DNA of 64,000 bases from a bacterium (GCA_014803575.1 JAAVBO010000022.1:4138-68137); one strand, 5' to 3'. Counted from the stretch's first letter, positions 4,640 to 35,323 are shown. Numbers and translations are program-made. Notes: generated by a model from the sequence alone, not told the origin.

Positions 4640-4705
4640 GATTTTGTTCTTCTGGTTAATCTCTTGAAATTATGCTATTCTTTTCTTATATGACAGGAGG
4701 AAAAA

Positions 4706-19556: not shown

Positions 19557-20393
19557 ATGTCAATTTCTATTGATCAATCTTTTATAAAACAGTTTGAAGC
19601 CGAAGTGCATCTTGCTTTTCAACAAACAGGAACAAAACTTCGTTCTACTGTCAGAACAAAAAATGATGTAAGAGGTAGTTCTACAACTTTCCAAAAAGTA
19701 GGTAAGGGAACTGCTACAACAAAAGCAAGACACGGTCTTGTGCCAGTTATGAATTTGGATCATACACCTGTTGAATGTGTATTATCAGATTACTATGCCG
19801 GTGATTGGGTTGATGAGTTAGACGAGCTTAAAACAAATGTTGATGAAAGACGTGTTGTTGCATCTGCCGGTGCGTATGCATTGGGTCGTAAAAGTGATGA
19901 GCTTATTATTTCAGAACTTAATCTTGCTTCACAATCTGTTGAAATGGGAACAACCGGTCTTACAAAGGCGAAAATCCTTTCTGCTTTGGAAATACTTAAT
20001 AATAATGATGTGCCAGATGATGGTCAAAGATTTGCTGTTGTCGGTGTGCATCAATGGAATGAACTTTTAAATATGAAAGAATTCTCAAATGCTGATTATG
20101 TCGGTGATTCTTATCCTTTATTAAACGGAACGGAATCAAGAAAATGGCTTGGTATTAATTGGATTATGCATAATGCTTTGCCTTTTGATGAAGATAATTC
20201 TTCAAGAGCTTGTTTTATCTATCACAAAAATGCAATAGGTCATGCATCAGGTTGTGATGTTAAAACTGATATTACATGGCATGGTGAAAGAGCTGCGCAC
20301 TTTATTTCTAATTGTATGAGTCAAGGTGCAAAGCTTATTGATAACAGCGGTATTGTTAAAATTATGTGTAAAGATACTTCTGTGATTGGTTAA
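19557..20393 (+). CDS. T7-like (gp10-like) major capsid protein
   Basis: FQKVGKG...VPVMNLDHTPVE...DERRVVASAGAYALGRKSDELIISELN resembles T7 gp10 FPVLGRTQAAYLAPGENLDD...DVRSEYTSQLGESLAMAADGAVLAEIAGL (from memory); strong RBS aaaaaggagat. Confidence 0.75.
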   Translation: MSISIDQSFIKQFEAEVHLAFQQTGTKLRSTVRTKNDVRGSSTTFQKVGKGTATTKARHGLVPVMNLDHTPVECVLSDYYAGDWVDELDELKTNVDERRVVASAGAYALGRKSDELIISELNLASQSVEMGTTGLTKAKILSALEILNNNDVPDDGQRFAVVGVHQWNELLNMKEFSNADYVGDSYPLLNGTESRKWLGINWIMHNALPFDEDNSSRACFIYHKNAIGHASGCDVKTDITWHGERAAHFISNCMSQGAKLIDNSGIVKIMCKDTSVIG

Positions 20394-20419
20394 TAATAAA
20401 CAAAAAAAAGGAAATAAAA

Positions 20420-20674
20420 ATGTCAATGGATTCAAAAAATTTATCAGTTCTTGCTTATTCTAACGGTTTTACTTTGTGGCATTATAAAACAGATGATGCG
20501 AAAACTGTTGTCGGAGCAAGCGGATATTTCAATAAAGTGTCGAATATATTTAATGTAGGAGATGTTATTTTTGCATCTCTTGGAAATACCTCAAAAGAAA
20601 TGGTAATGTATACAGTTTCTTCTGTGGAAAGTGGTGTTGTTAGTGTGTCTGATGTAATGCCAACAAGTGTTTAA
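20420..20674 (+). CDS. small phage-module protein, hypothetical
   Basis: Sits between capsid and tail tubular A; own RBS and terminator. Confidence 0.4.
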   Translation: MSMDSKNLSVLAYSNGFTLWHYKTDDAKTVVGASGYFNKVSNIFNVGDVIFASLGNTSKEMVMYTVSSVESGVVSVSDVMPTSV

Positions 20675-20694
20675 TTTTAGTAATTTGGAATAAA

Positions 20695-20723
20695 ATCCCT
20701 GTTTTCGGACGGGGATTTTTTTA
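20695..20723 (+). terminator. Rho-independent terminator
   Basis: ccctgttttcggacggg hairpin + T7. Confidence 0.5.
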
Positions 20724-20733
20724 TGGGAGAAAT

Positions 20734-21297
20734 TTGATGAATAATTTTACAATGGTGGATTTGTGTTCTAAGGCTTTGAATAAAATAGGAGCAAGTGAAA
20801 TAGTTTCTTTTGACGAAGGAACACCAGAGGCGGAATTTTCAAGAAGTATATATCCTGTATTAAAGCATAAGTTATTATCATCATTTCCATGGAGTTTTGC
20901 AACGGAAATTAAAAGGCTTAATAAGATTGTTATTGAAGATGTGGAAGCAGAATTTTCTAATTGTTATTTGCTTCCGTCTGATTTTATAAGGGCAGTGAAA
21001 ATTTCATCAAAACTTCCATATAAGATTATTGGGGATAAATTATTTACCGATGCGACAGGTGTTATACTTACTTATATATCTGATGTTGATGAATGTAGGT
21101 TTTCATCTGCTTTTGTATCGGCATTTATTTATGCTATTGCAGCAGAATTATCGGTTTCGCTTTTGGATGATGTGACTAAATTTAATTTATTATACCGACT
21201 TTATACTTCTGAATTAAGGGAAGCAAGATTTTTAGACAGTATGCAGGAAAGTCCAAAAAAGTTTAATGACTTTTCTTTGATTGATGTGAGGTTTTAA
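20734..21297 (+). CDS. T7 gp11-like tail tubular protein A
   Basis: Size (187 aa), position after capsid, N-terminal ...KALNKIGASEIVSFDEG...WSF... resembles gp11 ...NDILASIGEPPVSTLEGD...WTF. Confidence 0.65.
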   Translation: MMNNFTMVDLCSKALNKIGASEIVSFDEGTPEAEFSRSIYPVLKHKLLSSFPWSFATEIKRLNKIVIEDVEAEFSNCYLLPSDFIRAVKISSKLPYKIIGDKLFTDATGVILTYISDVDECRFSSAFVSAFIYAIAAELSVSLLDDVTKFNLLYRLYTSELREARFLDSMQESPKKFNDFSLIDVRF

Positions 21298-21304
21298 GAG
21301 AGGA

Positions 21305-23218
21305 GTGAATATGTATAAACAAGTGATTTCTAATACTAACTTTTCCTATGGTGAAATTTCCCCTTATTTATTTGGAAGAGGAGATATTGAGGCATATAAA
21401 TCCGGAGCAATGACTATTTCGAATATGACAGTTATTCCTACCGGCGGAATAAAAAGAAGAGATGGAACTAAGTTTATATCTCAGTTGTCGGGTGTAGGAA
21501 AATTGTTGGTTTTTGAATATTCTTCGGACAAAGTATTTCTTTTGTGTTTTACTGATAAAATATTGTATATTTATGATAGCGATAATAATTTGGTCGCATC
21601 TTTGTATTCTCCGTTTAGTTTGGAACAACTTTCTAATATAAGATGGTCACAGAAAGGTAATCTTCTTTTTATTGTGCATAAGGATATTTTTCCTAAGATT
21701 TTAAAATATATTCCGTCTGGCAATATTTGGAAGTTTGAAGATTGGGTGTTTGATAAAAATCCGGAAACCGGAGCTTCGTATCAGCCGTTTGCAAAATTTG
21801 ATGATACAGAAGAAATTTCTCTTACTCCATCAAATTTGACCGGAGAGATAGAGTTGGAAGCTTCGGACGAATTTTTTGATGTTTCTTATGTCGGAACAAA
21901 AATTAAAATAAATGGTGGTGAAGTTTTGATTACAGAGTTTATTTCTTTTGTGAAAGTTAAGGCTTTGGTTATTATTGAATTAGAAGGTACGGAAGCTTCT
22001 TATTTTTGGCAAGAACAGGCATTTTCTTGCAGGCGAGGTTATCCTAAAACTATTACATTTCATCAAAACAGATTGGTTATAGGGGCATCAAAATCTTTAC
22101 CTAATAGATTGTGGTTTTCCAAAACTGGAAATTATTTTAATTTTGATTTAGGTGAAGGTCTTGATGATGAAGCGATAGAGTTTGATATGTTATCGGATAA
22201 AGTTAATGAAATTGTTTGTGTGTTTTCAGGACGGCATTTGCAGGTTTTTACATCTGATTCCGAATGGATGGTTTCCGGATTGCCTTTGACACCATCATCA
22301 TTATCCGTAAAACAACAAACAAAAATCGGTTCTGTTTCGGATAGATTTATCTCTCCTAAATTAATAGAAGGTTCAACTGTATTTGTTGCAAAAAATAATA
22401 AGGAAATCAGAGAATTTTTCTATGGTGATATTACTGAAAATTATTCATCCGAAGATTTGATTTTACTTTCTAACCATTTGATGAATAAACCGAAAGAATT
22501 GGATTATGATATTAAAAAAAGATTGCTTTATGTTTTACAAAGTGACGGAACTGTTTCTGTTTTACTTTTGAATAAAACAAGTGGTATTAATGCTTGGTTT
22601 AAATATGAAACTTGCGGAGAATTTATTTCTTTGTGTGTATTTTTAAATAATTTATATGTTATTGTAAAACGTGAAAATGACTATTTTTTAGAAGTATTTA
22701 CGGAAGATATTTTTACTGATAGTTCGTTGGTATTTAAATCTAAAAATAAAACAAATAAAATAGTTGGAATTTCCCATTTGAATAATAAAGTTGTCAGTGT
22801 TAATGCCGATAATTATGTTTTTGATGTAAAAGTTTTAAATGGGGAAATTAATTTACCGATTGAGGCGGAAAATATTTTTATCGGACTTCCTTATACACAT
22901 ATTTTGTGTCCGTTACCATTTTTGATAGGTGGTGTTAGGGCGCCTAAGGTTGTTAGGTTGTTTGATTTGTCTTTTCGTGTTATGGATACACCTTTATTGC
23001 AAATAGATACCGGTGATGGTTTAAGAAATATTACCTGTCGTAATTTTGACAGGGAAGATAATATTGATAATCCAATAAAAATTTTTAGCGGGGATGTTCA
23101 TATAAAGGCAAAAGGTTTGTTAAGAAATTTTAATGTTCCGTTATGGAAACTTCAAAGTTCAAAACCTTATAATGTTAATATTTTAAATGTTTCTGCTACT
23201 GTTGGTAGCGTAAAATAA
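21305..23218 (+). CDS. T7 gp12-like tail tubular protein B
   Basis: QNRLVIGASKSLPNRLWFSKTGNYFNFDLGEGLDDEAIEF ~ T7 gp12 FRNRLGFLSGENIILSRTAKYFNFYPASIANLSDDDPIDV; follows gp11-like gene. Confidence 0.75.
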   Translation: MNMYKQVISNTNFSYGEISPYLFGRGDIEAYKSGAMTISNMTVIPTGGIKRRDGTKFISQLSGVGKLLVFEYSSDKVFLLCFTDKILYIYDSDNNLVASLYSPFSLEQLSNIRWSQKGNLLFIVHKDIFPKILKYIPSGNIWKFEDWVFDKNPETGASYQPFAKFDDTEEISLTPSNLTGEIELEASDEFFDVSYVGTKIKINGGEVLITEFISFVKVKALVIIELEGTEASYFWQEQAFSCRRGYPKTITFHQNRLVIGASKSLPNRLWFSKTGNYFNFDLGEGLDDEAIEFDMLSDKVNEIVCVFSGRHLQVFTSDSEWMVSGLPLTPSSLSVKQQTKIGSVSDRFISPKLIEGSTVFVAKNNKEIREFFYGDITENYSSEDLILLSNHLMNKPKELDYDIKKRLLYVLQSDGTVSVLLLNKTSGINAWFKYETCGEFISLCVFLNNLYVIVKRENDYFLEVFTEDIFTDSSLVFKSKNKTNKIVGISHLNNKVVSVNADNYVFDVKVLNGEINLPIEAENIFIGLPYTHILCPLPFLIGGVRAPKVVRLFDLSFRVMDTPLLQIDTGDGLRNITCRNFDREDNIDNPIKIFSGDVHIKAKGLLRNFNVPLWKLQSSKPYNVNILNVSATVGSVK

Positions 23219-23236
23219 TATTGAAAGGAGTTTTAA

Positions 23237-23707
23237 ATGGGTAATGTTGCTAATACTGTGAGTGCTGTGACATCGGCAGTTGGAGTTGTTGATAATATTG
23301 TTAGCTATAAAAACAATAAAGATAAACAAAAGGAAGAAAATAGAATATTAGAAGAAGAAAAGCGAATAAAAGAAGAGCAGATTGATGTAAAAAAACAACA
23401 ATATAAAGAAGAAAAAACAAATTTGTTGAAGGTGAAGCTTGCTTCTCAAAGGGCTAAATTGGGTGCTAACGGAATTAATGCAACTTCCGGCTCTTCTGTG
23501 GCATATCTTTCTAATTTAGAAAAGAATGTTGATGAAGAAATTGCAAAAAATGATTATTTCGCTGATTTGAATCTGCAAAATGAAAATAATATTTATAATT
23601 ATAAAAAGAAAGTTAATTTATTAAATTCATCAAAAAATAATTATAATGTTTTTTCTGATACTTTGAAGTCAACTACACAGCTTTTTTCTTCGTTATGGAA
23701 AATTTAA
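23237..23707 (+). CDS. coiled-coil phage-module protein (possible gp13-like internal/assembly protein)
   Basis: Position after gp12-like gene, size 156 aa, charged coiled-coil; no motif-level match. Confidence 0.3.
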   Translation: MGNVANTVSAVTSAVGVVDNIVSYKNNKDKQKEENRILEEEKRIKEEQIDVKKQQYKEEKTNLLKVKLASQRAKLGANGINATSGSSVAYLSNLEKNVDEEIAKNDYFADLNLQNENNIYNYKKKVNLLNSSKNNYNVFSDTLKSTTQLFSSLWKI

Positions 23708-23718
23708 AAGGGTAATTT

Positions 23719-24441
23719 ATGATGAATGATATTATTGAATATTCCTATATTTGTGATGGGAAACAAACTGTTTTTGAATATTTATTTGAAACTTTTTCTG
23801 TTCCATTTGTGAAAATTTATCTTGATGGAGAATTGATTGAAAAAGGTTTTACAGTTTATCCGTTTAATGATAAATGTGGTGGAAAGGTTGTGTTTGAATA
23901 TCCTCCATTAGCCGGTAAAAAATTAACTGTTTTAAGAGAATTGAATTTTTCCAGAGTTTGTGATTTTCAAACTGGCGGTGTTTTTAGGGCAGAGGATTTA
24001 AATTATGAAATGAATTATAATATTGCTTGTCTTAATCAGTTAGATAAAATATTGAAGAAATCTATAAAACTTTCCCGCTTTGATAACAAAGAAGTAAATC
24101 CTGTTTTGCCTCCGGCAAAGGCAGGTCATGCAATTGTATGGAACGAGAAGGGAAATGGATTTTCGAATTTAGATATTAATATAACCGAACAAGTAAACTT
24201 TGTTGAAGATTGCTTGAATTCGGTGGAAAATTTATATAATGATTTGACTGAGATTATTACAAACAGTCTTGATGTCGGTATTTTGGGACTTTTTCATAAT
24301 TTGTTGGGTCTTATCAGAGGATATCATCCCGATGCCTTTGAAGATTTTAAGTTAATTTCATCTGATTCGGATAAAATTTTTGATTATGGTTTGGTTAGTG
24401 ATACTCAAAACATTAATGTGAAAAATAATGGTAAATTGTAA
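23719..24441 (+). CDS. T7 gp17-like tail fibre, N-terminal adaptor domain only
   Basis: EYSYICDGKQTVFEYLFETFSVPFVKIYLDG ~ gp17 TYQLDGSNRDFNIPFEYLARKFVVVTLIG; FRAEDLNYEMN ~ LRAYDLNVAQI; 240 aa vs ~550 aa fibre, no distal domain. Confidence 0.55.
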   Translation: MMNDIIEYSYICDGKQTVFEYLFETFSVPFVKIYLDGELIEKGFTVYPFNDKCGGKVVFEYPPLAGKKLTVLRELNFSRVCDFQTGGVFRAEDLNYEMNYNIACLNQLDKILKKSIKLSRFDNKEVNPVLPPAKAGHAIVWNEKGNGFSNLDINITEQVNFVEDCLNSVENLYNDLTEIITNSLDVGILGLFHNLLGLIRGYHPDAFEDFKLISSDSDKIFDYGLVSDTQNINVKNNGKL

Positions 24442-25042
24442 AAAAAATACAAAAGTCAGTTTTTTAGAATTTTTGAAAATATGGTGTGATGTGCAAGGTA
24501 TTTCTTTGCCTTTGCACCATAAAAAAATTGCTCAGTGGTTGGAAGAGATTTTTTATTCTGATAAAAAAAAGGGGTTGTTATTAGCGTTCAGAAGTAGTGG
24601 GAAGTCTACTGTCGTTGGACTTTTTTGTTCATGGCTTTTGTATATTAACCCGAATGTCAGGATTTTGGTTTTGGCGGCGGATACGGTGCTTGCAAAAAAA
24701 ATGGTGCGAAATATAAAAAGGATAGTGGAGATTCATCCTATGTTAGAGGATATTAAACCCAAGAAAAAGCAAGAGTGGGCTTCGGGAAGTTTTACTGTGG
24801 AGCGAGATTTGGCACTTCGTGATCCATCTGTGATGGCGGTTGGACTTCTTTGCAATTCGACTGGAAGCAGGGCAGATGTTATTATTTGCGATGATGTGGA
24901 GGTGCCGAAGAACTGTGATACTTATCAAAAACGGTGTGATTTGAGGGAAAAATTATTGGAGTTGAATTTTATTTTGGTGCCTAATGGAATGCAGATTTTT
25001 ATAGGGACACCACATACTTTTGATACCATTTACAAGGTTTAA
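24428..25042 (+). CDS. T7 gp19-like large terminase, N-terminal ATPase half (stand-alone ORF)
   Basis: Walker A LAFRSSGKST, GSRADVIICDDVEVP ~ T7 GSRADIIIADDVEIP, IGTPHTFDTIYKV ~ LGTPQTEMTLYK; stops immediately after this motif. Confidence 0.8.
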   Translation: MVNCKKNTKVSFLEFLKIWCDVQGISLPLHHKKIAQWLEEIFYSDKKKGLLLAFRSSGKSTVVGLFCSWLLYINPNVRILVLAADTVLAKKMVRNIKRIVEIHPMLEDIKPKKKQEWASGSFTVERDLALRDPSVMAVGLLCNSTGSRADVIICDDVEVPKNCDTYQKRCDLREKLLELNFILVPNGMQIFIGTPHTFDTIYKV

Positions 25043-25096
25043 ACAGTTGATTTTTTGCCCTCTTTTATACAGAAAATATTTTTTTTCAAATAATTA

Positions 25097-25124
25097 TTGA
25101 CAAAGTAAAATATGTTTGTATAAT
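25097..25124 (+). promoter_or_regulatory. consensus sigma70 promoter (TTGACA-16-TATAAT) driving repeat array
   Basis: Perfect -35 and -10 hexamers seen in sequence. Confidence 0.6.
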
Positions 25125-25197
25125 GGAGGTAGTTTAGTTAGTTAAAAAAGAATTTGCCGGGACGACCCCTCATTTCGGCAAATCTGGTGAAAGCCAG

Positions 25198-25500
25198 TAA
25201 ATTCCCCTAAGTCATTCCCTCCTTATTTTCTCTCTCCTCGACTTAGGGGATAAATTTTTACCGAGAATTCCGAGTAATCTCACAAAGGCGAACTAAAATT
25301 TTCTACTAACCCCGTAGAAAATTAAGTTCTTGTTTGTTCGGTTTCTCTCTCCTCGACTTAGGGGATAAATTTTTACCGAGAATTCCGAGTATAGCAAACC
25401 AGATATCCTAAACTTCTCGCTAAAACCGCTCGTCGTTAAGGATAACTTCGTTTGCTATTCTCTCTTCTCGACTTAGGGGATAAATTTTTATTGATATTTC
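25198..25500 (+). repeat. tandem array: 48-nt direct repeat x3 (third degenerate) with 66-67-nt structured spacers
   Basis: tctctctcctcgacttaggggataaatttttaccgagaattccgagta at 25229-25276, 25344-25391, degenerate at 25459-~25494; first repeat closes an 11-bp stem with 25203-25213 around a CT-rich loop. Confidence 0.8.
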
Positions 25501-25555
25501 TATCTTTATTTAATATTATTTGTAATAATTTAATACAAATAAGAAAGGTGAAAAA

Positions 25556-26215
25556 ATGAAACTCAGCACAGTTGAAAAAATCTATATTATTGAATTTTTG
25601 GGTAGGTATGTTTTGCCTGAATATATGCCTCAAGATTTAAAAAAACAAAGAAGACTCATAACTATGCAGGATGATCTTTCCGGAATTATTAAAGAAAAAA
25701 CCAAAGATAAAAATGAAATAAAGAGAATGATAAAAACTTATATTGAAGACTCTTTACGCTTTTATGTTGAAAGTTTTAATATATCAATGGAAGAGGTGTA
25801 TAATATAGATATAGATGGTGTATTTCCTTCTACTGAAAAAAACATTGTATCAGTAGAAAAAAGTGATTTAGGCAGATATGAAGTTTCAAGACATTTTGGT
25901 GTTATAACAACTGATGAAATAAAGGCTACTTATATTGGTGGCGCAGGAAACTTTTTATATAATGGTAAAAGGGGTATTAGTATTCCAAATTATGTATTTG
26001 ATGATATTAAGGAAGGAAAGAATAATAAATATTTTAAACTATATAATACGGAAGTATATAATCCACCTTATTATAGTCAACATTATTTAGTTGAACCATA
26101 TCGTATACCAAATAATGGATATGTTGAGTTGCCGATAGAGCCTATTCCTTATGATAAAAATTTTGTTGATAGGGAAGTTAATTTAATTTATAAAGCTCGT
26201 GAAAATCAAAGATAG
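25556..26215 (+). CDS. hypothetical protein (219 aa)
   Basis: RBS aaggtg; no recognisable motif; own terminator. Confidence 0.5.
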   Translation: MKLSTVEKIYIIEFLGRYVLPEYMPQDLKKQRRLITMQDDLSGIIKEKTKDKNEIKRMIKTYIEDSLRFYVESFNISMEEVYNIDIDGVFPSTEKNIVSVEKSDLGRYEVSRHFGVITTDEIKATYIGGAGNFLYNGKRGISIPNYVFDDIKEGKNNKYFKLYNTEVYNPPYYSQHYLVEPYRIPNNGYVELPIEPIPYDKNFVDREVNLIYKARENQR

Positions 26216-26221
26216 TAAAAT

Positions 26222-26246
26222 TCCCCTTGGTTTTAGGGGATTTTTT
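26222..26246 (+). terminator. Rho-independent terminator
   Basis: tcccc-ttggtttt-agggga hairpin + T6. Confidence 0.6.
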
Positions 26247-26575
26247 ATGGGAGATTAATTTTTTTGATTTTTTATTTGAAATTTTTGTTTTAAATTGCTA
26301 AAAATAAAACTGTATTTTAAAAGATTTGCGAATCGGTTTAATTTTTTTATAAAAAAGAATCGATTCTTTTGTGTTTTTTAAGATTTTATTGTTTAGACAA
26401 TCTAATTTTTAAAAAGAATCTTTAAAATTTTAATATGTTGTTTTTACAGCATTATTTTCTATTTTTGTGTACTTTAAAAGTTGTCAAAAAAAGAATCGCT
26501 TGACTTTTTTTGTCGAATGTTTTAAGAATCGTTGTATGAAGCGAATAGAAATTGTTTCTGTGAAACTTCAAACCT

Positions 26576-26818
26576 ATTCCCTGTTGCGTTCCTTTTCTCT
26601 CCTTTCCTCCTTCTCTCCTCGCAACGGGGAATTTTTTTGTGCTGATGGAATATTACGGACAGATAGCCTTCGTTAATGTCTAACTTACAGTTTTTTGGTG
26701 GAGATTTTGTGTCGGGTGGGCGTTGACCCAAACAAGCAATCCTAAGCTTCTCACTAATATCGTTCGTCGCTAAGGATAGCTGGGTTTGTGTTCTCCTCGC
26801 AACGGGGAATTTTTTTTG
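26576..26818 (+). repeat. paralogous structured-repeat array (two units) with long terminator-like hairpin
   Basis: 13-bp stem attccctgttgcg/cgcaacggggaat around 31-nt CT-rich loop + T7 (26576-26638); second unit 26732-26818 homologous to spacer-2/repeat-3 of first array. Confidence 0.75.
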
Positions 26819-27028
26819 TGCCTATGGGTATTGCTGACAGAGAGCTTTTAGATAGTAAAAATATTTATAAAGATTTATAAAAGTAGGTCCATATGTGCCC
26901 GCCCCAAGGGGGATAGACCAAAGAGTATCGGCTTTGATGACTGATGAAGGTGTGAAATTCAAAATAATCCTTGAAAGTTTTCTGTGTTTCAGTTTATACT
27001 TCAAAATATAAAAAACGAAAGGTCTATT

Positions 27029-27805
27029 ATGAATAATGTAAATGCGAATACCAATACTGAAAAAGAAGAAATTAAATATTTGACCCTTGATGATATAGAT
27101 AAAATGTATGAAGAGGCGGAACCTGCGGATTGGGGTTTCCCAGAGAACTATAGTGCTGTAGCTTCTAATAGATATCAAAATTTAACAACTTATGTAAAAC
27201 TTACTAAAATAGAGATAGAACGATTACCTGCTGATCATGCTAAGCTTCTTTTAGATTTTTATAATTTGTTTGATGAAAATGAACCTTATAAAGATAAGGA
27301 AGGTACTCCATATAGGGATAATTTATTAAATGATTTATATTATAATATATATGATGACGATTATGCACCTCTGTTTTCATCATCTAATGGAAAAAAAATC
27401 TATAGACACGATATTAAGTATGTAGAAAAGAACTGGAATAATCGTGTTGTAAAGGTTACTAAAATAGGAACAGAAGAAATACCAGTATTAGATAAAAATC
27501 AAAAGATAGAGAAATTGAAAAAATCCTTTGATATATTCAAAAGATTAAAAGAAAGGGATTTAGTTCTTGCCAGTATGTATGATAGAATAGTTAAGGAGGG
27601 GAGGGACTACTTGACATACCATGATTATCTTGGAAATTTTAATACACATTGTATGCTATTAGACGAAGGACGTTTACTTGATTATATAAGATATTTTTTT
27701 GCTAAAGCTAATTGGCGTGGTGCTTTATTTATACAGAACAAATTTCCAAATGTAAAAGTCACGGAAAATATGATGGCACAGTATTTGGAATATAAAGGAA
27801 GGTAA
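27029..27805 (+). CDS. hypothetical protein (258 aa)
   Basis: ATG 27029 with RBS gaaagg preferred over GTG 26984 of ORF track; no recognisable motif. Confidence 0.5.
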   Translation: MNNVNANTNTEKEEIKYLTLDDIDKMYEEAEPADWGFPENYSAVASNRYQNLTTYVKLTKIEIERLPADHAKLLLDFYNLFDENEPYKDKEGTPYRDNLLNDLYYNIYDDDYAPLFSSSNGKKIYRHDIKYVEKNWNNRVVKVTKIGTEEIPVLDKNQKIEKLKKSFDIFKRLKERDLVLASMYDRIVKEGRDYLTYHDYLGNFNTHCMLLDEGRLLDYIRYFFAKANWRGALFIQNKFPNVKVTENMMAQYLEYKGR

Positions 27806-27811
27806 TAAAAT

Positions 27812-27836
27812 CCCCTCTTTTGAGGGGTTGTTTTTT
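27812..27836 (+). terminator. Rho-independent terminator
   Basis: cccctc-tttt-gagggg hairpin + T-run. Confidence 0.55.
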
Positions 27837-27838
27837 AT

Positions 27839-28795
27839 ATGATATTTATGTATAATAATACTATGAATGAAGAGTATTTTAATATTGCCGGTTTTACAAA
27901 GTATCCAACGAATATATATAATTCGGAGCCGGAGAATGGTTATGCTCAAGGGGTGAATGAATGTAAGATTCCGGAGGCCTTGGTTTATTATGGCTTAGAT
28001 TCTGATACCCAATTTATGAAGTTATTTAATCCTGTATGGTATAGTGTTTTGAAGAGTTGTAAATTGCAGGCTGTTGTTTATAGTATATCAAATTATTTAT
28101 TTGATAACAGTCTTTCTCCTTTGTGGAATAAGTTTGAAAGAAATGTTGTTGATATGTTGCCGGCTGTGATAATTCTTTGCGGTTGGCAAAGGCATATTGA
28201 AAATATGAAAAAGAAAAAATTTGATATAACTCAGATTGAATTTAACAGGCAAGAGATACGAAATACTTTGACAAAGGGTATGCGAGTTTATGGGAAATCC
28301 GGTATGCTTATATCCGGAATGATATGGGCGAGTATATTATTGAATGCGAATCTTGTACAGTTAGGATGTTTACAATATGAAATAAAGAAAGCAAATAATC
28401 AATATGTGTGTGATGAAATATCTATTGGAGATATGATTGTTGCGATACATATTCCTGCCGGAGCTTTGTTTACTCCTGATGCAGTAGAGAAATCCATTAC
28501 AATGGCAAAGGAGTATTTTGGAGATAAGGTTTCGTTTATATGTAATTCTTGGTTATTGGGTGAACAGTTGGGTACTTGTCTAAAATCTGACAGTAATATT
28601 TTTAATTTTCGAAGGTATTTTAGTATAATTAAAACGGAAGATTCTGAATCTGTTTATAATTTTTTATTTAATAATGCGGATGATAATCCTAATATATCTG
28701 ATTTAGCGGAGGGAACATCTTTGCAAAAGTCAGTTAAAAAGGCTATGTTATCAGGTATTCATTTTTATGATGCGATTGGGATTTTGAAATGTTAA
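27839..28795 (+). CDS. hypothetical protein (318 aa)
   Basis: No recognisable motif; start uncertain. Confidence 0.45.
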   Translation: MIFMYNNTMNEEYFNIAGFTKYPTNIYNSEPENGYAQGVNECKIPEALVYYGLDSDTQFMKLFNPVWYSVLKSCKLQAVVYSISNYLFDNSLSPLWNKFERNVVDMLPAVIILCGWQRHIENMKKKKFDITQIEFNRQEIRNTLTKGMRVYGKSGMLISGMIWASILLNANLVQLGCLQYEIKKANNQYVCDEISIGDMIVAIHIPAGALFTPDAVEKSITMAKEYFGDKVSFICNSWLLGEQLGTCLKSDSNIFNFRRYFSIIKTEDSESVYNFLFNNADDNPNISDLAEGTSLQKSVKKAMLSGIHFYDAIGILKC

Positions 28796-28908
28796 GACTT
28801 ATATTTGGTTTAGATATAAAATAGGAGGCCGAAAAATATTTCTTTTTGCTTAAAATAAAAAAAAAGGTTGCCTTTTTGTAAAATATAGGTTATAAATCTA
28901 TCATCTTT

Positions 28909-28984
28909 GGCTAGGTAGCTCAGTCGGTAGAGCAAAGGACTGAAAATCCTTGTGTCGGCGGTTCGATTCCGCCCCTCGCCACCA
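28909..28984 (+). tRNA. tRNA-Phe (GAA)
   Basis: Cloverleaf by hand: anticodon loop cuGAAaa, T-arm ggcgg/ttcgatt/ccgcc, encoded CCA. Confidence 0.85.
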
Positions 28985-28995
28985 TAAAAGGTCAG

Positions 28996-29018
28996 ACTCT
29001 CGTTTTCGGGAGTTTTTT
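28996..29018 (+). terminator. terminator after tRNA-Phe
   Basis: actctcg-tttt-cgggagt hairpin + T6. Confidence 0.55.
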
Positions 29019-29020
29019 AT

Positions 29021-29246
29021 TTGTGTGTCGGCGGTTCGATTGTCCTCGGGCTTTGCCCTCGTTCGTCCCGTAAGGCTCAACTTCGGACTTTGTCCTCGTT
29101 TTGCCAACTATCGACTCGTCCTCGGGCTTTGCCCTCGTTCGTCCCGTAAGCTTAAAGCATCGCCTTTGGCTCGCGTTTAAGCAACTATCGACTCCCGCCC
29201 CTCGCCACCATAAAAGGTTGAACTCCCTATTTTGGGAGTTTTTTTA
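29021..29246 (+). other. second copy of tRNA-Phe 3' end (att-like direct repeat) split by a 153-bp GC-rich insert, followed by duplicated terminator
   Basis: gtgtcggcggttcgatt (29024-29041) ... ccgcccctcgccaccataaaagg (29195-29217) match the tRNA 3' end; insert 29042-29194 = two 76-nt units each starting with tcctcgggctttgccctcgttcgtcccgtaag and ending aactatcgactc. Confidence 0.7.
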
Positions 29247-29341
29247 TGTTTAAAGTTTTTTTTCTTAAAAATTTTCTTTATCTCTTAACATTTTGCTTTT
29301 TTTATGGTATAATGTCGGGGAATAAAGTAAGGAGAGATATT

Positions 29342-30958
29342 ATGATAGGAGAAGGAAACTTCGGCTATAATTCACAAAATGATGATGATATTCAAAATTT
29401 TATTCCACGAATCACCGTAATGGGAGTTGGTGGTGCCGGTTGTAATGCCGTGGGAAATATGATTTCTCAGGGTATTGACGGTGTTGATTTTGTTGTTGCA
29501 AATACAGATGCTCAGTCTTTGATGCAATCAAAAGCATCAAGGAAAATCCAACTTGGAAAGCAAACAACTCGCGGTTTTGGTGCCGGTTCTCGTCCGGAAG
29601 TAGGGCAAAGTGCGGCGGAAGAATCCTTAAATGAAATTACTGATGTTATTAAAAACTCTAATATATTATTTTTAACTGGCGGTATGGGTGGCGGAACTGG
29701 TAGTGGTGCTATGCCCGTGATTGCCTCGGTTGCAAAGGAAAAGGGGATTTTAACGGTTGCAATTATTACTACACCTTTTGATTTTGAAGGGGAAAAGAAA
29801 AAGCGTATTGCAAAAGAGGCTATTTCCAAACTTATCCCTAATGTGGATTGTGTAATAACACTTCCTAATCAGAATTTATTTAAGGTTGCGGATAAGCAAA
29901 TGTCGTTTATGAATGCCTTTAAGTTATCTGATAATGTCCTTTATGAAGGGGTTAGAAATATTACAGATTTAATTATGAAACCTGGACTTATTAACCTTGA
30001 TTTTGCCGATATAAGGGCGGTTATGGAAGGACAAGGTAAGACAATAATCGGGACTTCTGTTCAAAGTGGTGAAAATAGGGCTTTAAAGGCGGTGGAAGGT
30101 GCTCTTCTTAATCCTCTGCTTTCTAATGAAAGTATAAGTGGAGCAAAGGGTATTCTTGTAAATATTACCGGTAATGCGTCAAATCTTTCCTTGGAAGAAG
30201 TTGGGGAGATTATGAATACCATTAGAGCCGGAATAAATTCAGAAGATACGAATTTTGTATTTGGAACTTGCTTTGATGATTCTATGGGTGACAGTTTGAA
30301 AGTTGCAATTATTGCAACCGGAATTGATGGTGCAAACGTATCGCAAAAGCCGGTCCTCAGCAGTTTTGATAGTTTTACATCTGAGGTTGTAAAACCTACA
30401 CCTTATTCATTTGAGGAAGAAAAGAAAGTTGAAATTAAAATGGAAGAACCTGTTATCAAAGAAGATAATTTGAAAGTTAAACAGGAACCGATTGTAAATA
30501 CTGATAAACTTGATAGTTTTTTTGAAACCGGTGATGAAAAGGATATTCAAAGTTTTATTGATGAGGAAGCAGAAAAGCTTAACATTGCAAGTAATGTAAC
30601 AAATGAACTTTTTGCCGATAAATCAGATAAAATTTCATCTTCTGATGATGATGGTGATGATAATCCGGAACCACCAAAGGGAAAAAAGAAAAATCCTTTG
30701 TCATCATTTTTTGATATGATTGGAGAAAAAGGTAATGATGATACTTTCTTTGAAGATGTTGATTTGGGAAAGGATGATGATATTACTTTTAAGAAAGAAG
30801 AGCAAATTTCCGATAAAAAGGAAGAAGATAATGTCGTTTTTTTAGCAGGTAGTCTTGATACTAAAAATCAAGAGGATAAGCAAATTGATTTGATGGAAAT
30901 GATTAAAAAAATGGAGGAAACTTTGGAAATACCTGCAATATTTAAAAAAGGTTCTTAA
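29342..30958 (+). CDS. ftsZ: cell division GTPase FtsZ (long acidic C-terminal linker)
   Basis: GVGGAGCNAV, GGGTGSG tubulin signature; ATG 29342 with RBS aggagag preferred over ORF-track start 29246. Confidence 0.9.
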   Translation: MIGEGNFGYNSQNDDDIQNFIPRITVMGVGGAGCNAVGNMISQGIDGVDFVVANTDAQSLMQSKASRKIQLGKQTTRGFGAGSRPEVGQSAAEESLNEITDVIKNSNILFLTGGMGGGTGSGAMPVIASVAKEKGILTVAIITTPFDFEGEKKKRIAKEAISKLIPNVDCVITLPNQNLFKVADKQMSFMNAFKLSDNVLYEGVRNITDLIMKPGLINLDFADIRAVMEGQGKTIIGTSVQSGENRALKAVEGALLNPLLSNESISGAKGILVNITGNASNLSLEEVGEIMNTIRAGINSEDTNFVFGTCFDDSMGDSLKVAIIATGIDGANVSQKPVLSSFDSFTSEVVKPTPYSFEEEKKVEIKMEEPVIKEDNLKVKQEPIVNTDKLDSFFETGDEKDIQSFIDEEAEKLNIASNVTNELFADKSDKISSSDDDGDDNPEPPKGKKKNPLSSFFDMIGEKGNDDTFFEDVDLGKDDDITFKKEEQISDKKEEDNVVFLAGSLDTKNQEDKQIDLMEMIKKMEETLEIPAIFKKGS

Positions 30959-30979
30959 AAGTTTATTTTTGCTGTTTGT

Positions 30980-31010
30980 CCCTTTGATTTTTTTCAAAGG
31001 GATTTTTTTT
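30980..31010 (+). terminator. Rho-independent terminator after ftsZ
   Basis: ccctttga-tttttt-tcaaaggg hairpin + T8. Confidence 0.6.
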
Positions 31011-31033
31011 ATTTATAAATAAAGGAGTGAAAT

Positions 31034-32530
31034 ATGATAGAAACAAATATTACAGATAAAAATATGATAGACGGTATTTACGAAAGGTATATTAATGCCT
31101 TGGAAAAACGTGCCGTTTGGGAAAATTATTGGGAGGAATGTTATGAATATGCTTTGCCACAAAAAAGCGGGATTTTCAAAAATGATAATGGCAGTGTGAA
31201 AAAAAATTCGACTGTTTTTGATTCAACTGCGGAATCTGCAGTAGACAGACTTGCCAGTAGTCTTCTTTCTCAACTTACACCGCCTTGGTCAAAATGGTTC
31301 GGGCTTGAATTTGGAATTGATATAAGTGATGATGAGGAAAGGTCGGAAAAGGTTCTTCAACTTGAAAATATTGAAAAAATTTTGCAATCGCATTTTGACA
31401 GGTCTAATTTTTATGTGGAGGCACATCAATGCTATCTTGATTTGATAACTGTCGGAACGGCGGTTATGTTATTTGAAGAAAATGCGGTCGGTGAAAATTC
31501 TGCGTTTAAATTTACGGCCGTGCCTATGAATGAAATTGTTTTTGAAGATAGCGGAAATGGAAAATTGGATAGTGTGTTTAGGCGTTCTAATGTTTCTCTT
31601 TCCAATTTGAAATCAAGGTTTGTAAATAGTGTTTTTGATGAAAGACAACAAGATATTATTTCAAAAAATTCTGATAAAAAAGTTTATGTGATTGAGGTGG
31701 TAGTTCCTCGTATTACCTCAACCGGACAACAAGGATATAATTACTTTGCGTTTGTGGATGATGTTGATGGAATATTTGGCAGTGATGAAAGAATTGTCCT
31801 TAAAACCGGAGTATTTGCAAATTCTCCGTTTATTTGTTTCAGATGGCAGAAGGTAAGTTCCGAAATATATGGAAGATCGCCCGTGATGAAGGCACTTCCC
31901 GATATTAAAACTGCAAACAAGGTTGTAGAGCTTATCCTTAAAAATGCGTCTATTGCGGTAAGCGGTATTTGGCAGGCGGATGATGACGGGATTCTAAATC
32001 CTCAGAATATTACTCTTGCCCCCGGAACTATTATACCAAAGGCAGTTGGATCTGCCGGACTTACACCTATCAGAAGCGGTGCTGATTTTGATGTGTCGCA
32101 ACTTGTTCTTTCTGATTTAAGGGCCAATATCAACAGGTGCTTATTGGTGGATCAATTGACTGCTTCGTCCGGTGGTAAAATGACTGCTACGGAAGTGATA
32201 GAGCGAATAAATCAGATATCCCGTATTTTGGGTGCGACTTATGGCAGATTGCAATCGGAGTTTTTGACTCCTGTCATTATTCGTGCGGTTAGCATTTTGA
32301 AGCGTCGCGGGGAAATTTCTGATATAATGGTGAATGGGTATGAAGTTGATTTGAAGTATCAATCTCCACTTGCGCAAAATCAGATAGTTCGCGATGCCGA
32401 AAATGTTTTAAATTGGATAAAAACTTTGGCTGAATTTGGTGAAGATGCAATGAGTATTATTGATAAAAAGGCTGTCGCATTATGGCTTGGTAAAGTTTTT
32501 GGTGTGTCTGAAAAATTGATTATATCTTAG
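31034..32530 (+). CDS. T7 gp8-like portal (head-to-tail connector) protein
   Basis: EIYGRSPV ~ T7 gp8 ESYGRSYI; GGKMTATEVIERINQISRILGATYGRLQSEFLTPV ~ GERVTAEEIRYVASELEDTLGGVYSILSQELQLPL (from memory). Confidence 0.75.
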   Translation: MIETNITDKNMIDGIYERYINALEKRAVWENYWEECYEYALPQKSGIFKNDNGSVKKNSTVFDSTAESAVDRLASSLLSQLTPPWSKWFGLEFGIDISDDEERSEKVLQLENIEKILQSHFDRSNFYVEAHQCYLDLITVGTAVMLFEENAVGENSAFKFTAVPMNEIVFEDSGNGKLDSVFRRSNVSLSNLKSRFVNSVFDERQQDIISKNSDKKVYVIEVVVPRITSTGQQGYNYFAFVDDVDGIFGSDERIVLKTGVFANSPFICFRWQKVSSEIYGRSPVMKALPDIKTANKVVELILKNASIAVSGIWQADDDGILNPQNITLAPGTIIPKAVGSAGLTPIRSGADFDVSQLVLSDLRANINRCLLVDQLTASSGGKMTATEVIERINQISRILGATYGRLQSEFLTPVIIRAVSILKRRGEISDIMVNGYEVDLKYQSPLAQNQIVRDAENVLNWIKTLAEFGEDAMSIIDKKAVALWLGKVFGVSEKLIIS

Positions 32531-32545
32531 TTTAAAGAGGTTATT

Positions 32546-33427
32546 ATGGAAGAAGATTTGAGTAAGCCTTTTTTGGTCGGGTTTGATGTCCTTAAAATAC
32601 CTGTGATTGAAAATGGAAAACCTACTTGGGAAGAAAAGTTTCCGATTCAAAAAATAGAGGAGCTTAAGGCACGAGTTGGAATTAAAAAATTTTCTTCCCA
32701 AATGATGTTGATGCCTATTGATACAAATAAGGGTAGGTTCGATGTAAAAAAATTAAAATTTTATTCATCAGAACTTCTTATGGAAGAAAGAAACAGGCTT
32801 CTTAATTTTTCAATTAATGGGAATAAGGTTGTAAGTTGTTCTTGTTGGTGGGATCCGTCCTATGGGTCAAGAGGTGGTGACGGAAGTGTAATTTCTGTTG
32901 TTTTTATTGATGAAGTGGGGCGATATTATCTTCATGATGTAAAGTATTTATATCATTCTGATGGGAATGCAGAGGAAATTCAGTCTGCGGTTGACCAATG
33001 TAGGCAAGTGGGCGAATTTTTGCGGGAAAATCATATACCTTCTGTGTATGTGGAAAGTAATGGCATAGGCAAATTTTTGCCGGGGTTTTTAAGAGGAGAG
33101 CTTTCAAAAATGGGGGTAAATGCTACTGTTATTGAAAAAACATCCAGAATTTCAAAGAATTTGAGGATTTTAGATGCGTTTGATGTGATTATTTCCGCTG
33201 GGTATCTTTTTGTGAATGAAAAGGTTAAAGATACGCCTTGGATTGCAGAATTTTGTGATTGGGGTGTGGATACAAAATCGCATGATGACGGGCTTGACAG
33301 TGTTGCGGGGGCTATTTCTTCGCAACCGGTCAGACTTCCTTTGACTTTGTTTTCCGGTTTAAAGGGCAGGTATAGTTTGGCCGGAAAAACCTTTAAAATA
33401 AAGACTAATTTTGATATAGATTTTTAA
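32546..33427 (+). CDS. T7 gp19-like large terminase, C-terminal nuclease half (stand-alone ORF)
   Basis: FSSQMMLMP ~ FTLQFMLNP; WWDPSYGSRGGDGSVISVV ~ VIDPSGRGKDETGYAVLYT; HDDGLDSVAGAIS ~ HDDRLDALALGIE; own RBS aagagg 15 bp after portal stop. Confidence 0.8.
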   Translation: MEEDLSKPFLVGFDVLKIPVIENGKPTWEEKFPIQKIEELKARVGIKKFSSQMMLMPIDTNKGRFDVKKLKFYSSELLMEERNRLLNFSINGNKVVSCSCWWDPSYGSRGGDGSVISVVFIDEVGRYYLHDVKYLYHSDGNAEEIQSAVDQCRQVGEFLRENHIPSVYVESNGIGKFLPGFLRGELSKMGVNATVIEKTSRISKNLRILDAFDVIISAGYLFVNEKVKDTPWIAEFCDWGVDTKSHDDGLDSVAGAISSQPVRLPLTLFSGLKGRYSLAGKTFKIKTNFDIDF

Positions 33428-33442
33428 ATCGACAAATAATTA

Positions 33443-33471
33443 TTGACAAATCATATTTTTAAGTTTATATT
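33443..33471 (+). promoter_or_regulatory. sigma70-like promoter (TTGACA-17-TATATT)
   Basis: Seen in sequence; shares 18-nt caaataattattgacaaa with promoter at 25087-25104. Confidence 0.45.
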
Positions 33472-33501
33472 ATAACTATATTTTAATAAAAGAGGTATGA
33501 T

Positions 33502-34158
33502 ATGAATATGGATAATAAAAAATATTATATTGTATTTACAGGATTATTTTTAATCTTTGTAGGTTTCTTTGTTTATTTTATCGATTCGTCTAAAAAGGTA
33601 GAAAATAAAACAGTTAGTTTGACAAAACCTGTTTCTTATTCTGTGGAAACCGTGAAAGTGGTGAAAGTTGTTCAGGCGGAAAAACCAAAGGGATTGCCTC
33701 TTAATTATGTGTATGAAATTCCTAATTTTGAAAGAAGTATACCTTATTATTTAGGAACAAAGAGATTTATTGAAGAATTGGATAATTTTCAAATTATTTG
33801 CAGTGGAAAAAATTGCAACAGGCAGATTTTGACCGGCAAAAATGCAACAACTTCTAACTGTAATAGAAAAAATAATGTTAAAATTAAGGTTGTCAGAGGT
33901 GATGTGACTTTTTCAAAGAATAATTTGAAATATCTTAAAAGTAATACAAAGATAGTTGGTGATTTATATATTCGTGATATAAATTTCCTTAAAATTCCGA
34001 AAAATTTTGCTGTGATTGGAAATGTTTATGTTATAAATTCCGATGGACTTACTTTTATGGGTAAAAATTTTATTGATGGTCATATTTTTGTGAAGGGTAA
34101 GAGCAGTATCAGGGCTCTTCCATACGATGTAAAATTAACTGGTCAAATATTTATTTAA
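33502..34158 (+). CDS. membrane-anchored hypothetical protein
   Basis: N-terminal TM; repetitive beta-rich C-terminus; no motif. Confidence 0.4.
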   Translation: MNMDNKKYYIVFTGLFLIFVGFFVYFIDSSKKVENKTVSLTKPVSYSVETVKVVKVVQAEKPKGLPLNYVYEIPNFERSIPYYLGTKRFIEELDNFQIICSGKNCNRQILTGKNATTSNCNRKNNVKIKVVRGDVTFSKNNLKYLKSNTKIVGDLYIRDINFLKIPKNFAVIGNVYVINSDGLTFMGKNFIDGHIFVKGKSSIRALPYDVKLTGQIFI

Positions 34159-34181
34159 TTTTGTTTGTTTTTGATGATAAA

Positions 34182-34208
34182 GGGGTGGTTTTGCCACCTC
34201 TTTTTTTT
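34182..34208 (+). terminator. Rho-independent terminator
   Basis: ggggtgg-tttt-gccacctc hairpin + T8. Confidence 0.6.
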
Positions 34209-34223
34209 ATATAAGGAGGAAAT

Positions 34224-34463
34224 ATGGATGAAAATTTAGATGTATTATTAAAAGATAATAAAGAATATTTTGATAACATAGAGGTGGATTTTGTAAGAAC
34301 CTTTAATAGCCAGAGCGGTAAGAAGGTTTTGAAATATCTTATACTTTTAAGTCTTGGTAGATATTTGCCACCGAATGCGACTAATGAAGAACTTCATTAT
34401 TTAGAAGGGGAACGTTTTCTTGTATCCTTTATTTTAAATATGATAAAGAAGGGTAAGAATTAA
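34224..34463 (+). CDS. small hypothetical protein (79 aa)
   Basis: RBS aaggagg; no motif. Confidence 0.35.
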   Translation: MDENLDVLLKDNKEYFDNIEVDFVRTFNSQSGKKVLKYLILLSLGRYLPPNATNEELHYLEGERFLVSFILNMIKKGKN

Positions 34464-35323
34464 TTTTTGTTATTTATATTTTTAAGTGGTATGTTGATAG
34501 TATTTAATACTGTTAATAATTCGTTTTTGGCGGCGATGTGTGAAAGGGTGATTTCTTCTTTGCCTATTTCCATAAGGTCAAGTATTGTTAATCCCTTTAA
34601 AAACATTTCTCTGTATACTACTCGTTCGCCAATTCCCGATATGTAATTAAATCCTATTTGTTGTTGAAGCAGTCTTAGTATTTGGTCTACTTCACGTTTG
34701 TTTTTTGCATCAATGTGTGAAATTCTGTTTCTTAATACTATCCAACGGAGTTCAGGTTTACCAAGTTCTGCTCTTTTTTGTTGGATAAATCTTATATTGT
34801 TGGTGTATTGTGATTCTGATATAATGTTTTTTGTGTATGGATCTATGTTTGCGATTACATCAATATCTACTAAACTATCATTTACAGGAGTGATTAGTAT
34901 ATCTGCGTTTTTATGTCCGGCGGTTGAAAGATGATTGTATGTTCCGGGGGTATCAATTATGATTATATCGTATTCTTTTTTTAAATCCTTTATTTCTGCA
35001 TCAAGTTGTTGTTCGTCCTCGGAAGAGCTTTTTTTATTTGAAAATTGTGATGGAGTGACGACCAAATGTTCAGGCATAGGAAGAGTTATATGGTTATCGT
35101 TTGCATAACGAATTCTGTTTTCTATGTAATGGGTAAGGGTGCCTTGACGACCATCTAAATCTATGGTTGCAACCTTGTATCCTGCATATAGGTAGGCAAC
35201 TGCCAAATGTATTGACATAGTAGATTTTCCACTGCCTCCCTTTTCGTTTCCAACGACTATTACATACGAATTATCGCTCATTTCCTTTTCTCCGTTTGAT
35301 ATTATACTATTTTTTTTAGTCAA
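34460..35323 (-). CDS. ParA/MinD-family P-loop ATPase (MipZ-like)
   Basis: Deviant Walker [14 protein letters not shown]; size ~287 aa and sequence pattern like alphaproteobacterial MipZ. Confidence 0.65.

Follow-up and report, generated by a model that had tools for sequence, protein, structure and literature searches.

A conserved structured repeat unit nested in truncated copies of the tRNA-Phe 3′ end upstream of ftsZ in uncultured gut Alphaproteobacteria

Between tRNA-Phe and ftsZ, the stretch of bacterial DNA analyzed here (64,000 nt, hereafter the window; GCA_014803575.1 JAAVBO010000022.1:4138-68137) carries a truncated second copy of the tRNA 3′ end, which is interrupted by two structured units. 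Comparison with related genomes indicates that the locus is an old tandem repeat that grows and shrinks, is reshuffled and at times disappears through recombination between its direct repeats. Conservation and covariation, taken together, show that the + strand fold of the unit is under purifying selection. We tentatively propose, with a confidence that stays somewhat short of even, that the unit is a structured element grafted into hairpins and maintained by selection within this recombining array of tRNA 3′ ends, probably in the form of RNA.

Organization of the tRNA-Phe locus

The window is AT-rich overall (32.5% GC). The following features were identified at the locus:

28868..28904, + strand: promoter-like region 5′ of tRNA-Phe (TTGCCT-17 nt-TATAAA; consensus match only)
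28909..28984, + strand: intact tRNA-Phe(GAA), CCA encoded (ARAGORN; Rfam RF00005, 69.7 bits)
28994..29022, + strand: intrinsic terminator 1, 9-bp stem and T-run (hairpin 28994-29015)
29024..29041, + strand: truncated tRNA-Phe copy, 5′ piece, with the variable loop, 5′ T-stem strand and T-loop (tRNA positions ~43-60)
29042..29117, + strand: unit 1, 76 nt, made of GTCCTC, hairpin 1 (29048-29058), TCGTTC, hairpin 2 (29065-29115, type A) and TC
29118..29194, + strand: unit 2, 77 nt, constant parts as in unit 1, hairpin 1 at 29124-29134 and hairpin 2 at 29141-29192 (type B)
29195..29210, + strand: truncated tRNA-Phe copy, 3′ piece, with the 3′ T-stem strand, acceptor 3′ strand and ACCA (positions 61-76)
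29220..29248, + strand: intrinsic terminator 2, 8-bp stem and T-run, a diverged copy of terminator 1 (hairpin 29220-29241)
29285-29313: ftsZ promoter (consensus scan)
29342-30958: ftsZ

The consensus scan gave a second candidate promoter for the tRNA (TTGTAA-17-TATCAT, 28876-28904), also a consensus match only, and found no promoter-like site of the module's own anywhere in the locus. The module shares the orientation and the high GC content of tRNA-Phe and ends with a terminator of its own.

The initial annotation had reported that the tRNA-Phe 3′ end is duplicated together with its terminator. This duplication is real: in addition to the ARAGORN and Rfam assignments, the tRNA-Phe segment TGTGTCGGCGGTTCGATT is identical at 18/18 positions in 28951-28968 and 29024-29041, where its second occurrence is preceded by TATTTG. 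The 3′ piece at 29195-29210 is identical to 28969-28984 at 16/16 positions, and CCGCCCCTCGCCACCA plus the terminator is repeated at 29195-29244 with 43/50 identity. The gap between the two copies, given as 36 bp, amounts to 39 nt from the tRNA 3′ end to the exact copy and to ~36 only with the degenerate 'ttg' included. Positions 1 to ~42 of the tRNA are missing from the interrupted copy, where ARAGORN calls no gene. Elsewhere in the window, the same program reports a 92-nt 'tRNA-Asp (anticodon atc)' at 50142-50233, within truB (50123-51043, minus strand) and without Rfam support, which is almost certainly a false positive.

The insert covers 29042-29194 (153 bp) and is placed exactly between T-loop base 60 and T-stem base 61 of the truncated copy. 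As initially described, it is formed by two head-to-tail units (TRF: period 76, 2.0 copies, score 213), but their lengths are 76 and 77 nt rather than 76 nt each. An exact 33-mer is common to both; it occurs nowhere else in the window and in none of 100 shuffles. The tail AACTATCGACTC is likewise exact in both units, which score 87.6 bits (unit 1) and 93 bits (unit 2) with the covariance model. The suspicion that the insert is a structured, tRNA-sized repeat was borne out, and so was its high GC content (55-56%, against 21-37% in the flanking kilobase and ~30% in the genome). In every tRNA-linked case the array sits 40-90 bp upstream of the ftsZ promoter. The same architecture is found in at least 12 independent assemblies and is therefore not an assembly artefact.

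Variation of the array among relatives

According to FtsZ, the window belongs to a lineage of uncultured, AT-rich gut Alphaproteobacteria represented by MAGs from human, Hadza, deer and other samples. Comparison of empty and occupied sites among the relatives, as the initial annotation had suggested, was positive: three of them (L004, L029 and L039) are empty and the others carry one or two units or two modules, with variation even within one species. The arrangements are as follows:

L024-L026 (FtsZ 99%, same species as the window): a single unit bearing another hairpin-1 allele; the two terminator alleles have changed places
L001 (FtsZ 95%): two units in reversed order, plus a third, 11-nt truncated tRNA copy, TGTCGGTGGTT
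L002 (FtsZ 90%): one unit; 1-nt deletion in the T-loop remnant
L029 (FtsZ 89%): empty, with the tRNA, the terminator and then the ftsZ promoter
L003 species (FtsZ 76%): the whole module, made of remnant, unit, remnant and terminator, is present once in most strains and twice in L003
L004 (FtsZ 75%) and L039 (FtsZ 69%): empty

Terminator alleles are thus exchanged within a single species, at 99% FtsZ identity. Hairpin 1 occurs as alleles G, G′, D and H and hairpin 2 as alleles A, B and B′, and these combine freely (G+A, G+B, D+A and D+B). In the L003 species the array always ends with the truncated copy TGTCGGCAGTT. Such an 11-nt truncated last copy, TGTCGGYRGTT, is common to two lineages, which points to a tandem repeat with unequal recombination and argues against independent integrase events. 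The T-stem of the L003 species reads GGCAG/CTGCC in the remnants as well as in the real tRNA, a shared change that indicates concerted evolution. As several lineages do without the array, it is dispensable.

Contigs end in or next to the array, directly upstream of ftsZ, in L001, L025, L027-L029, L032 and L035-L039. Evidently the repeat breaks short-read metagenome assemblies at this place, and the copy numbers seen in assemblies may consequently be underestimates. The array can also serve as a strain-level marker for this uncultured gut alphaproteobacterial lineage.

Structure and conservation of the unit

To describe the structure, we used an alignment of 14 distinct units from a handful of lineages. 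The layout of the unit begins with GUCCUC; hairpin 1, which is optional, and UCGUUC come next, then hairpin 2, which is long and irregular, and lastly UC. The base of hairpin 2 is invariant (GUC-NC-GUA-A ... AAC-UAU-C-GAC), and the sole variable base of the 'constant' part (GTCNCG) lies in the internal loop of this basal helix. Over hairpin 1, the invariant basal helix and the closing pairs of the variable hairpin 2, 96.8% of the cells expected to pair in the 14 units do so, compared with 22-43% in slid controls, and none of 500 shuffles reached the observed pairing or covariation score. Double-sided changes are present at 4 pairs. The basal helix is found independently by RNAalifold; its invariance means that covariation lends it no support. 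Single modules fold with ordinary energies (z-scores -0.4 to -2.6).

In the GC-richer copies described below, hairpin 1 is missing; its place is taken by pairing between the host loop and the unit (GAAC/GUUC, GYUUGUC/GRCAAGC). This helix between host loop and unit shows one-sided changes from U·G to C-G and from U-A to U·G, and the basal helix contains an invariant G·U. Since such G·U pairs and one-sided changes would be A·C mismatches on the other strand, the fold fits the + strand only.

Comparison of the window lineage with the L003 lineage, whose FtsZ sequences are 76% identical (24% different), showed that the constant nucleotides of the unit are identical at 35/35 positions. The variable part of hairpin 2 differs at 8/32 positions, with compensating changes, and the neighbouring terminators cannot be aligned between the two lineages. 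Within the L003 species, polymorphisms fall in the tRNA remnants, the terminator loops and the hairpin-1 loop, and none falls in the constant unit sequence. The constant parts are also identical between genomes of 30% and 48% GC. With constant parts unchanged and stems compensated, the unit is more intact than would be expected of a relic or of a single-copy selfish element.

Occurrence in other genomes and geometry of the graft

A metagenome scan with the constant parts recovered a 72-nt version of the unit in six intergenic contexts, on human gut contigs of 43-50% GC for which the only source name is 'Pseudomonadota bacterium'. Over the whole family the length ranges from 72 to 81 nt. In these six contexts the unit is nested, in one orientation, in a REP-like hairpin of the form GTCAT-stem-GAACTYGTTT^unit^stem-ATCTAAAAC. 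Its orientation relative to the host hairpin is identical in 6/6 GC-richer contexts and in the single T-arm context of the tRNA-linked lineages.

The graft is exact. The empty hairpin of L016, GTCACCCTGAACTTGTTT|CAGGGTCTAAAAC, and the occupied one of L020 have equal flanks and differ solely by the 72-nt unit, and the truncated tRNA copy differs from the empty, real tRNA (GGTTCGATT|CCGCC) by the unit alone. The geometry of the tRNA case is equal to that of the REP-like hairpins (GGCGG-TTCGATT^unit^CCGCC): the graft point directly precedes the 3′ strand of a GC-rich stem and follows a loop whose last bases are G-N-T-T. On its left the unit is flanked by GATT, GTTT or GCTT, and by ACTC between tandem units; its own ends are GTCCTC... 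and ...CGACTC. Neither flanks nor target are duplicated, and the boundaries allow no shift.

The family is low-copy in the contigs analyzed: the 64-kb window holds a single locus, and one gut assembly (L017, L020) has two copies or more. A few degenerate copies also exist, and every copy lies in direct orientation. Relative to neighbouring genes of the GC-richer genomes, five are co-directional and 2/7 are antisense to both flanking genes. When the orthologous sites of L043 and L017 were compared in the GC-richer lineage, the host hairpin itself was found to differ.

Some further arrangements were observed in these genomes. L019 carries, at 3989-5216, two paralogous genes for membrane proteins of 207-208 aa (39% identical), each preceded by a ~280-bp repeat (90% identity) with the unit inside; this is a tandem gene duplication that took the unit along. 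A diverged member of the family lies in L022 at 9211-9288 (covariance model E 0.009), just 3′ of an 896-aa ORF. The upper basal helix reads AUGU/ACAU in this member; such a substitution would count as compensated, in a helix that is otherwise invariant. The intergenic regions of L016, L020, L022 and L043 (43-50% GC) are mosaics of GTCAT-hairpin-ATC(C/T)A modules, all in the same orientation. Stems vary among copies of these modules and flanks are constant, as are the linkers that join them (..AACTATCCAAATT.., ..CAACAAGAACG..ACCAAGCAAAAGAAC..). The left edge of the GTCAT hairpins, TGTC, matches the left edge of the truncated tRNA-Phe copy (TGTC-GGCGG). The REP-like host hairpin also contains GTCATGCC and GCATCTAA, which we take to be short matches to E. 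coli rRNA; an Rfam search detected no rRNA in those loci, and a 5S or 23S rRNA fragment was rejected as the nature of this hairpin.

Possible origin and maintenance of the unit

Our preferred explanation has two layers. The first is a tandem array whose repeat comprises the 3′ part of tRNA-Phe (variable loop to CCA), the intrinsic terminator and TATTTG. The first repeat is the end of the real gene, and the later ones, truncated at their 5′ end, are unable to make a tRNA. Homologous or unequal recombination between the direct repeats alters copy number, order and terminator alleles among strains, and the same process can delete the array and restore an 'empty' site. The second layer is the GC-rich unit of 72-81 nt, grafted strand-specifically into the T-arm hairpin of a truncated copy. 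We infer that it came by enzymatic insertion at the DNA level into a T-arm copy, where it would be tolerated only thanks to the redundancy of that copy; disruption of the real tRNA would be lethal. The unit has since been kept by purifying selection on the folded + strand, as conservation and covariation show. The folded molecule would most likely be an RNA, made by read-through from the strong tRNA-Phe promoter past the terminator and ending at the terminator of the module; the two T-stem halves would form the closing helix. The pyrimidine-rich single strands GUCCUC and CUCGUUC, exposed in this fold, could pair with purine-rich targets or bind a protein. However, G·T pairs are tolerated in DNA hairpins too, so that folding as RNA and folding as single-stranded DNA are both compatible with the strand-specific pairing. 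In addition, the 2/7 antisense copies fit an orientation-free DNA element, or one that is independently transcribed, better than an RNA that is passively co-transcribed. Further points against this explanation are the small alignment of 14 distinct units, the dispensability of the array, the lack of covariation in the basal helix, the ordinary folding energies of single modules and the negative search for a grafting enzyme in 455 kb of sequence.

A bolder version, which we consider unlikely, is that the unit represents a conserved, structured RNA class not described before. Its ~45 invariant nucleotides around variable helices would make up a module that binds protein or acts as a catalyst and that spreads by hairpin-loop grafting, and the host hairpins, the tRNA T-arm included, would provide the closing helix. 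If this were true, the tRNA-Phe-linked array would be a small RNA gene cluster and not junk.

The main rival to the grafted, selection-kept element is a purely selfish one, which we regard as rather doubtful: a non-autonomous miniature element derived from an HUH/Y1 transposon (IS200/IS605, RAYT-type) or another site-specific transposon. Landing 3′ of G-N-T-T in hairpin loops and capable of precise excision, it would serve the host in no way, and the tRNA remnant would be just a tolerated landing pad. The exact insertion speaks for it, as it has neither target duplication nor terminal inverted repeats; so do the fixed orientation with respect to the target hairpin, the hairpins near both unit ends, the presence or absence of the unit in close relatives, and its occurrence in other genomes at loci that are unrelated to one another, in either orientation with respect to genes. 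Nevertheless, there is one locus in the 64-kb window and few copies per contig elsewhere, and selection for transposition cannot keep a single, vertically inherited locus intact, yet the 35/35 constant nucleotides and the compensated stems are there. The second tandem unit follows ...ACTC instead of G-N-T-T, and the left hairpin of the GC-richer copies is built in part from host-loop bases, unlike IS200/IS605 ends. No Y1 transposase was found in 455 kb of sequence from incomplete genomes; this was a weak test (tblastn at E<5 with approximate IS200 and IS608 TnpA queries). No RAYT was seen in the same 455 kb, nor any enzyme able to perform the graft.

Two further explanations concern the neighbourhood of the array. 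The initial annotation had suggested a scar of integration. In this reading, the tRNA copies would be attL/attR-type cores of a lost island or T7-like prophage, and the units remnants of attP arms. We judge this improbable. The tRNA att sites of tyrosine integrases typically comprise a block from the variable loop to past the 3′ end and are cut at the T-loop edge; here too, the duplicated block begins in the variable loop and extends past the 3′ end, and the graft point 60|61 is at the T-loop edge. T7-like structural genes flank the locus on both sides, and the empty and occupied relatives stand as this reading foresaw. On the other hand, no integrase or transposase was found in the window ORFs scanned, and there is almost no DNA between the tRNA copies. 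The T7-like cluster, with ftsZ in it, is conserved down to 55% FtsZ identity and is not a recent prophage at this place. The unit is inside the identity block instead of between two complete blocks, the array ends in the common 11-nt truncated copy, and phage records and viral contigs contain no match. Nor is the unit an attP arm, as it is specific neither to tRNA nor to att sites and also occurs in REP-like hairpins away from any tRNA. A duplicated tRNA 3′ end alone is no proof of an integrated island. Control of ftsZ in cis, with the units acting as upstream DNA (for example, as clustered GANTC sites for CcrM) or as a leader that modulates read-through, is in our view very improbable indeed. 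In its favour, the array stands 40-90 bp upstream of the ftsZ promoter in all tRNA-linked cases; each unit ends in GACTC (one site per unit), the T-loop contains GATTC, and in Caulobacter both ftsZ and mipZ are controlled by methylation. But in other genomes the unit lies beside genes that have nothing to do with ftsZ, the same promoter drives ftsZ in several relatives that lack the array, and two terminators stand between the units and ftsZ.

For a repeat of its size the unit is unusually conserved, its stems covary, and it is always found in another hairpin and in one orientation. If it is an RNA, the family would be one that lacks annotation and spreads in an odd way. If it is mobile DNA, it would rank, to our knowledge, with the smallest elements that target hairpins and would point to a hitherto unnoticed enzyme. 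Either outcome leaves current ideas standing.

Comparison with known systems

Sequences such as duplicated 3′ ends of tRNA genes and small palindromic repeats nested in others are already known. For the unit family, its exact grafting into hairpin loops and its conservation across GC contents, nothing alike was found in Rfam release 15 or in the literature searched. The array resembles tRNA att sites in that the 3′ part of a tRNA is repeated beyond the gene, relatives are occupied or empty and the break is at the T-loop edge. Unlike these sites, it has neither integrase nor cargo, only 39 bp and the 153-bp insert separate the copies, the repeat includes the terminator, the tandem array has a truncated last copy, and the insert is also present at hairpins that are not tRNA.

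With REP/BIME sequences and REPINs, which depend on the Y1 HUH transposase RAYT, the unit shares its small size, intergenic position, hairpin formation, GC richness and variation among strains, and it even lies among REP-like hairpins. It differs by being more conserved in sequence across GC contents, low-copy in the contigs analyzed and nested in a hairpin, by not forming inverted doublets, and by the lack of a visible RAYT in the 455 kb from incomplete genomes. Miniature elements of the PATE type, derived from IS200/IS605, also have no target duplication or terminal inverted repeats, are strand-specific beside a short motif, carry hairpins near their ends and leave precise empty sites. However, the left hairpin of the unit is optional or host-built, its target is loose (GATT/GTTT/GCTT) and no TnpA was found; all the PATEs that we know of are larger than 72-81 nt.

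IS1397 and ISKpn1, which insert in REP loops, and IS1111-type elements (attC or REP) likewise target the loop of an existing extragenic hairpin, but they are full-length, transposase-coding elements with terminal repeats or target duplications, whereas the unit has 76 nt and is non-coding. Rickettsia palindromic elements and rRNA intervening sequences are, like the unit, small structured inserts in RNA genes or helices of Alphaproteobacteria that extend an existing hairpin. They have no sequence similarity to it, and the host here is a non-functional tRNA remnant.

Searches for known families

With Rfam release 15, at gathering and at permissive thresholds (E up to 10), only the tRNA itself was found in the window, the locus and the homologous loci. 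The sole permissive extra was NEAT1_2 at chance level (14.6 bits, E 1.3; gathering score 60). BLAST of the 153-bp insert, which the initial annotation had proposed for phage and plasmid databases, gave no match to phage records, and a pattern scan of viral contigs returned 0 matches. Among plasmids, the only hit was an exact stretch of 25 nt in two Rhizobium leguminosarum plasmids (E 0.01), which we judged to be due to chance as no unit-like structure surrounds it. The literature searched contained nothing relevant on a comparable unit family.

Several candidate identities were rejected. The hammerhead core is absent on both strands, by eye, and Rfam models for twister, pistol, hatchet and HDV-like ribozymes gave no match. 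The frame GCC-AAC-TAT-CGA-CTC, considered as a tmRNA tag, contains no stop codon, and no tmRNA model matched. The RYYYAAC ... GTTRRRY core sites of an integron attC are absent: the base of the hairpin is GTC..GAC, GCCAAC is on the 3′ side only and GTTRRRY is on neither strand. A CRISPR array was discarded on the grounds that there are at most two units, that the 'spacers' are 2-3 hairpin alleles common to genomes and that there is no cas gene. The gene downstream is ftsZ and no toxN-like gene is present, which rejects a type III antitoxin (ToxI-like) array. Because the host copy has no 5′ half, no complete tRNA is interrupted, and the insert is neither an archaeal bulge-helix-bulge intron nor a group I intron of a tRNA. 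The 76-nt unit itself does not fold as a tRNA, its acceptor pairing being absent. A classical MITE was rejected for want of both terminal inverted repeats and a target-site duplication, and a retro-copy origin of the tRNA remnant because the copy includes the terminator, which a mature tRNA lacks.

Genomic surroundings

Scanning of ORFs (nearly all of those ≥110 aa in the 64-kb window) revealed no integrase, transposase, reverse transcriptase or Cas protein. The window holds a T7-like structural cluster at 19557-35323, with ftsZ embedded in it, and the rest is housekeeping (tpiA, recJ, mipZ, yidC, pnp, truB, mutS, mutL, dnaA). The cluster is also present in L003, L004, L005, L006, L007 and L015. 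Its order is capsid, tail tubular A, nozzle, internal virion protein, fibre, the ATPase half of the terminase (24428-25042), a variable region with tRNA-Phe, ftsZ, portal (31034-32530), the nuclease half of the terminase (32546-33427), an uncharacterised ORF and mipZ. This order is kept down to a 'Rickettsiales' MAG of 55% GC whose FtsZ is 55% identical, which argues that the phage genes are old residents and not a recent prophage at tRNA-Phe. The capsid (78-90% aa identity) is more conserved than FtsZ, and no replication genes were seen in the cluster. It looks like a domesticated podovirus-like cluster, possibly GTA-like, with a split terminase; the literature searched held no similar T7-like cluster that embeds ftsZ.

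The segment from the ATPase half of the terminase to tRNA-Phe is a variable accessory island. Just upstream of tRNA-Phe, a gene with a GNAT_C domain (27839-28795) has a 73%-identical copy in L001 (7542-8465, after a DUF386 gene) and is absent from the L003 and L004 loci. Further upstream, tandem RNA-like modules that end in terminators are found at 25130-25506 and 26560-26816 of the window, and in relatives at ~9300-9330 (L003), ~9700-9755 (L004) and ~7160-7300 (L005). These modules have no Rfam match. Kinship between their CU-rich repeats (25227-25506 and 26614-26816) and the 76-nt unit, which the initial annotation had suggested, was not confirmed: neither nhmmer nor the unit covariance model finds them, and the hexamer TCCTCG is all that they have in common. 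The constant part of the module has 50 nt (the CU-rich stretch UUCUCUCUCCUCG, a small hairpin and a T-run) and occurs in three copies with a spacing of 115 nt, separated by GC-richer, hairpin-forming segments of 65 nt; the second module pair is 178 nt apart. The stretch UUCUCUCUCCUCG is complementary to the ftsZ ribosome-binding site AGGAGAGA.
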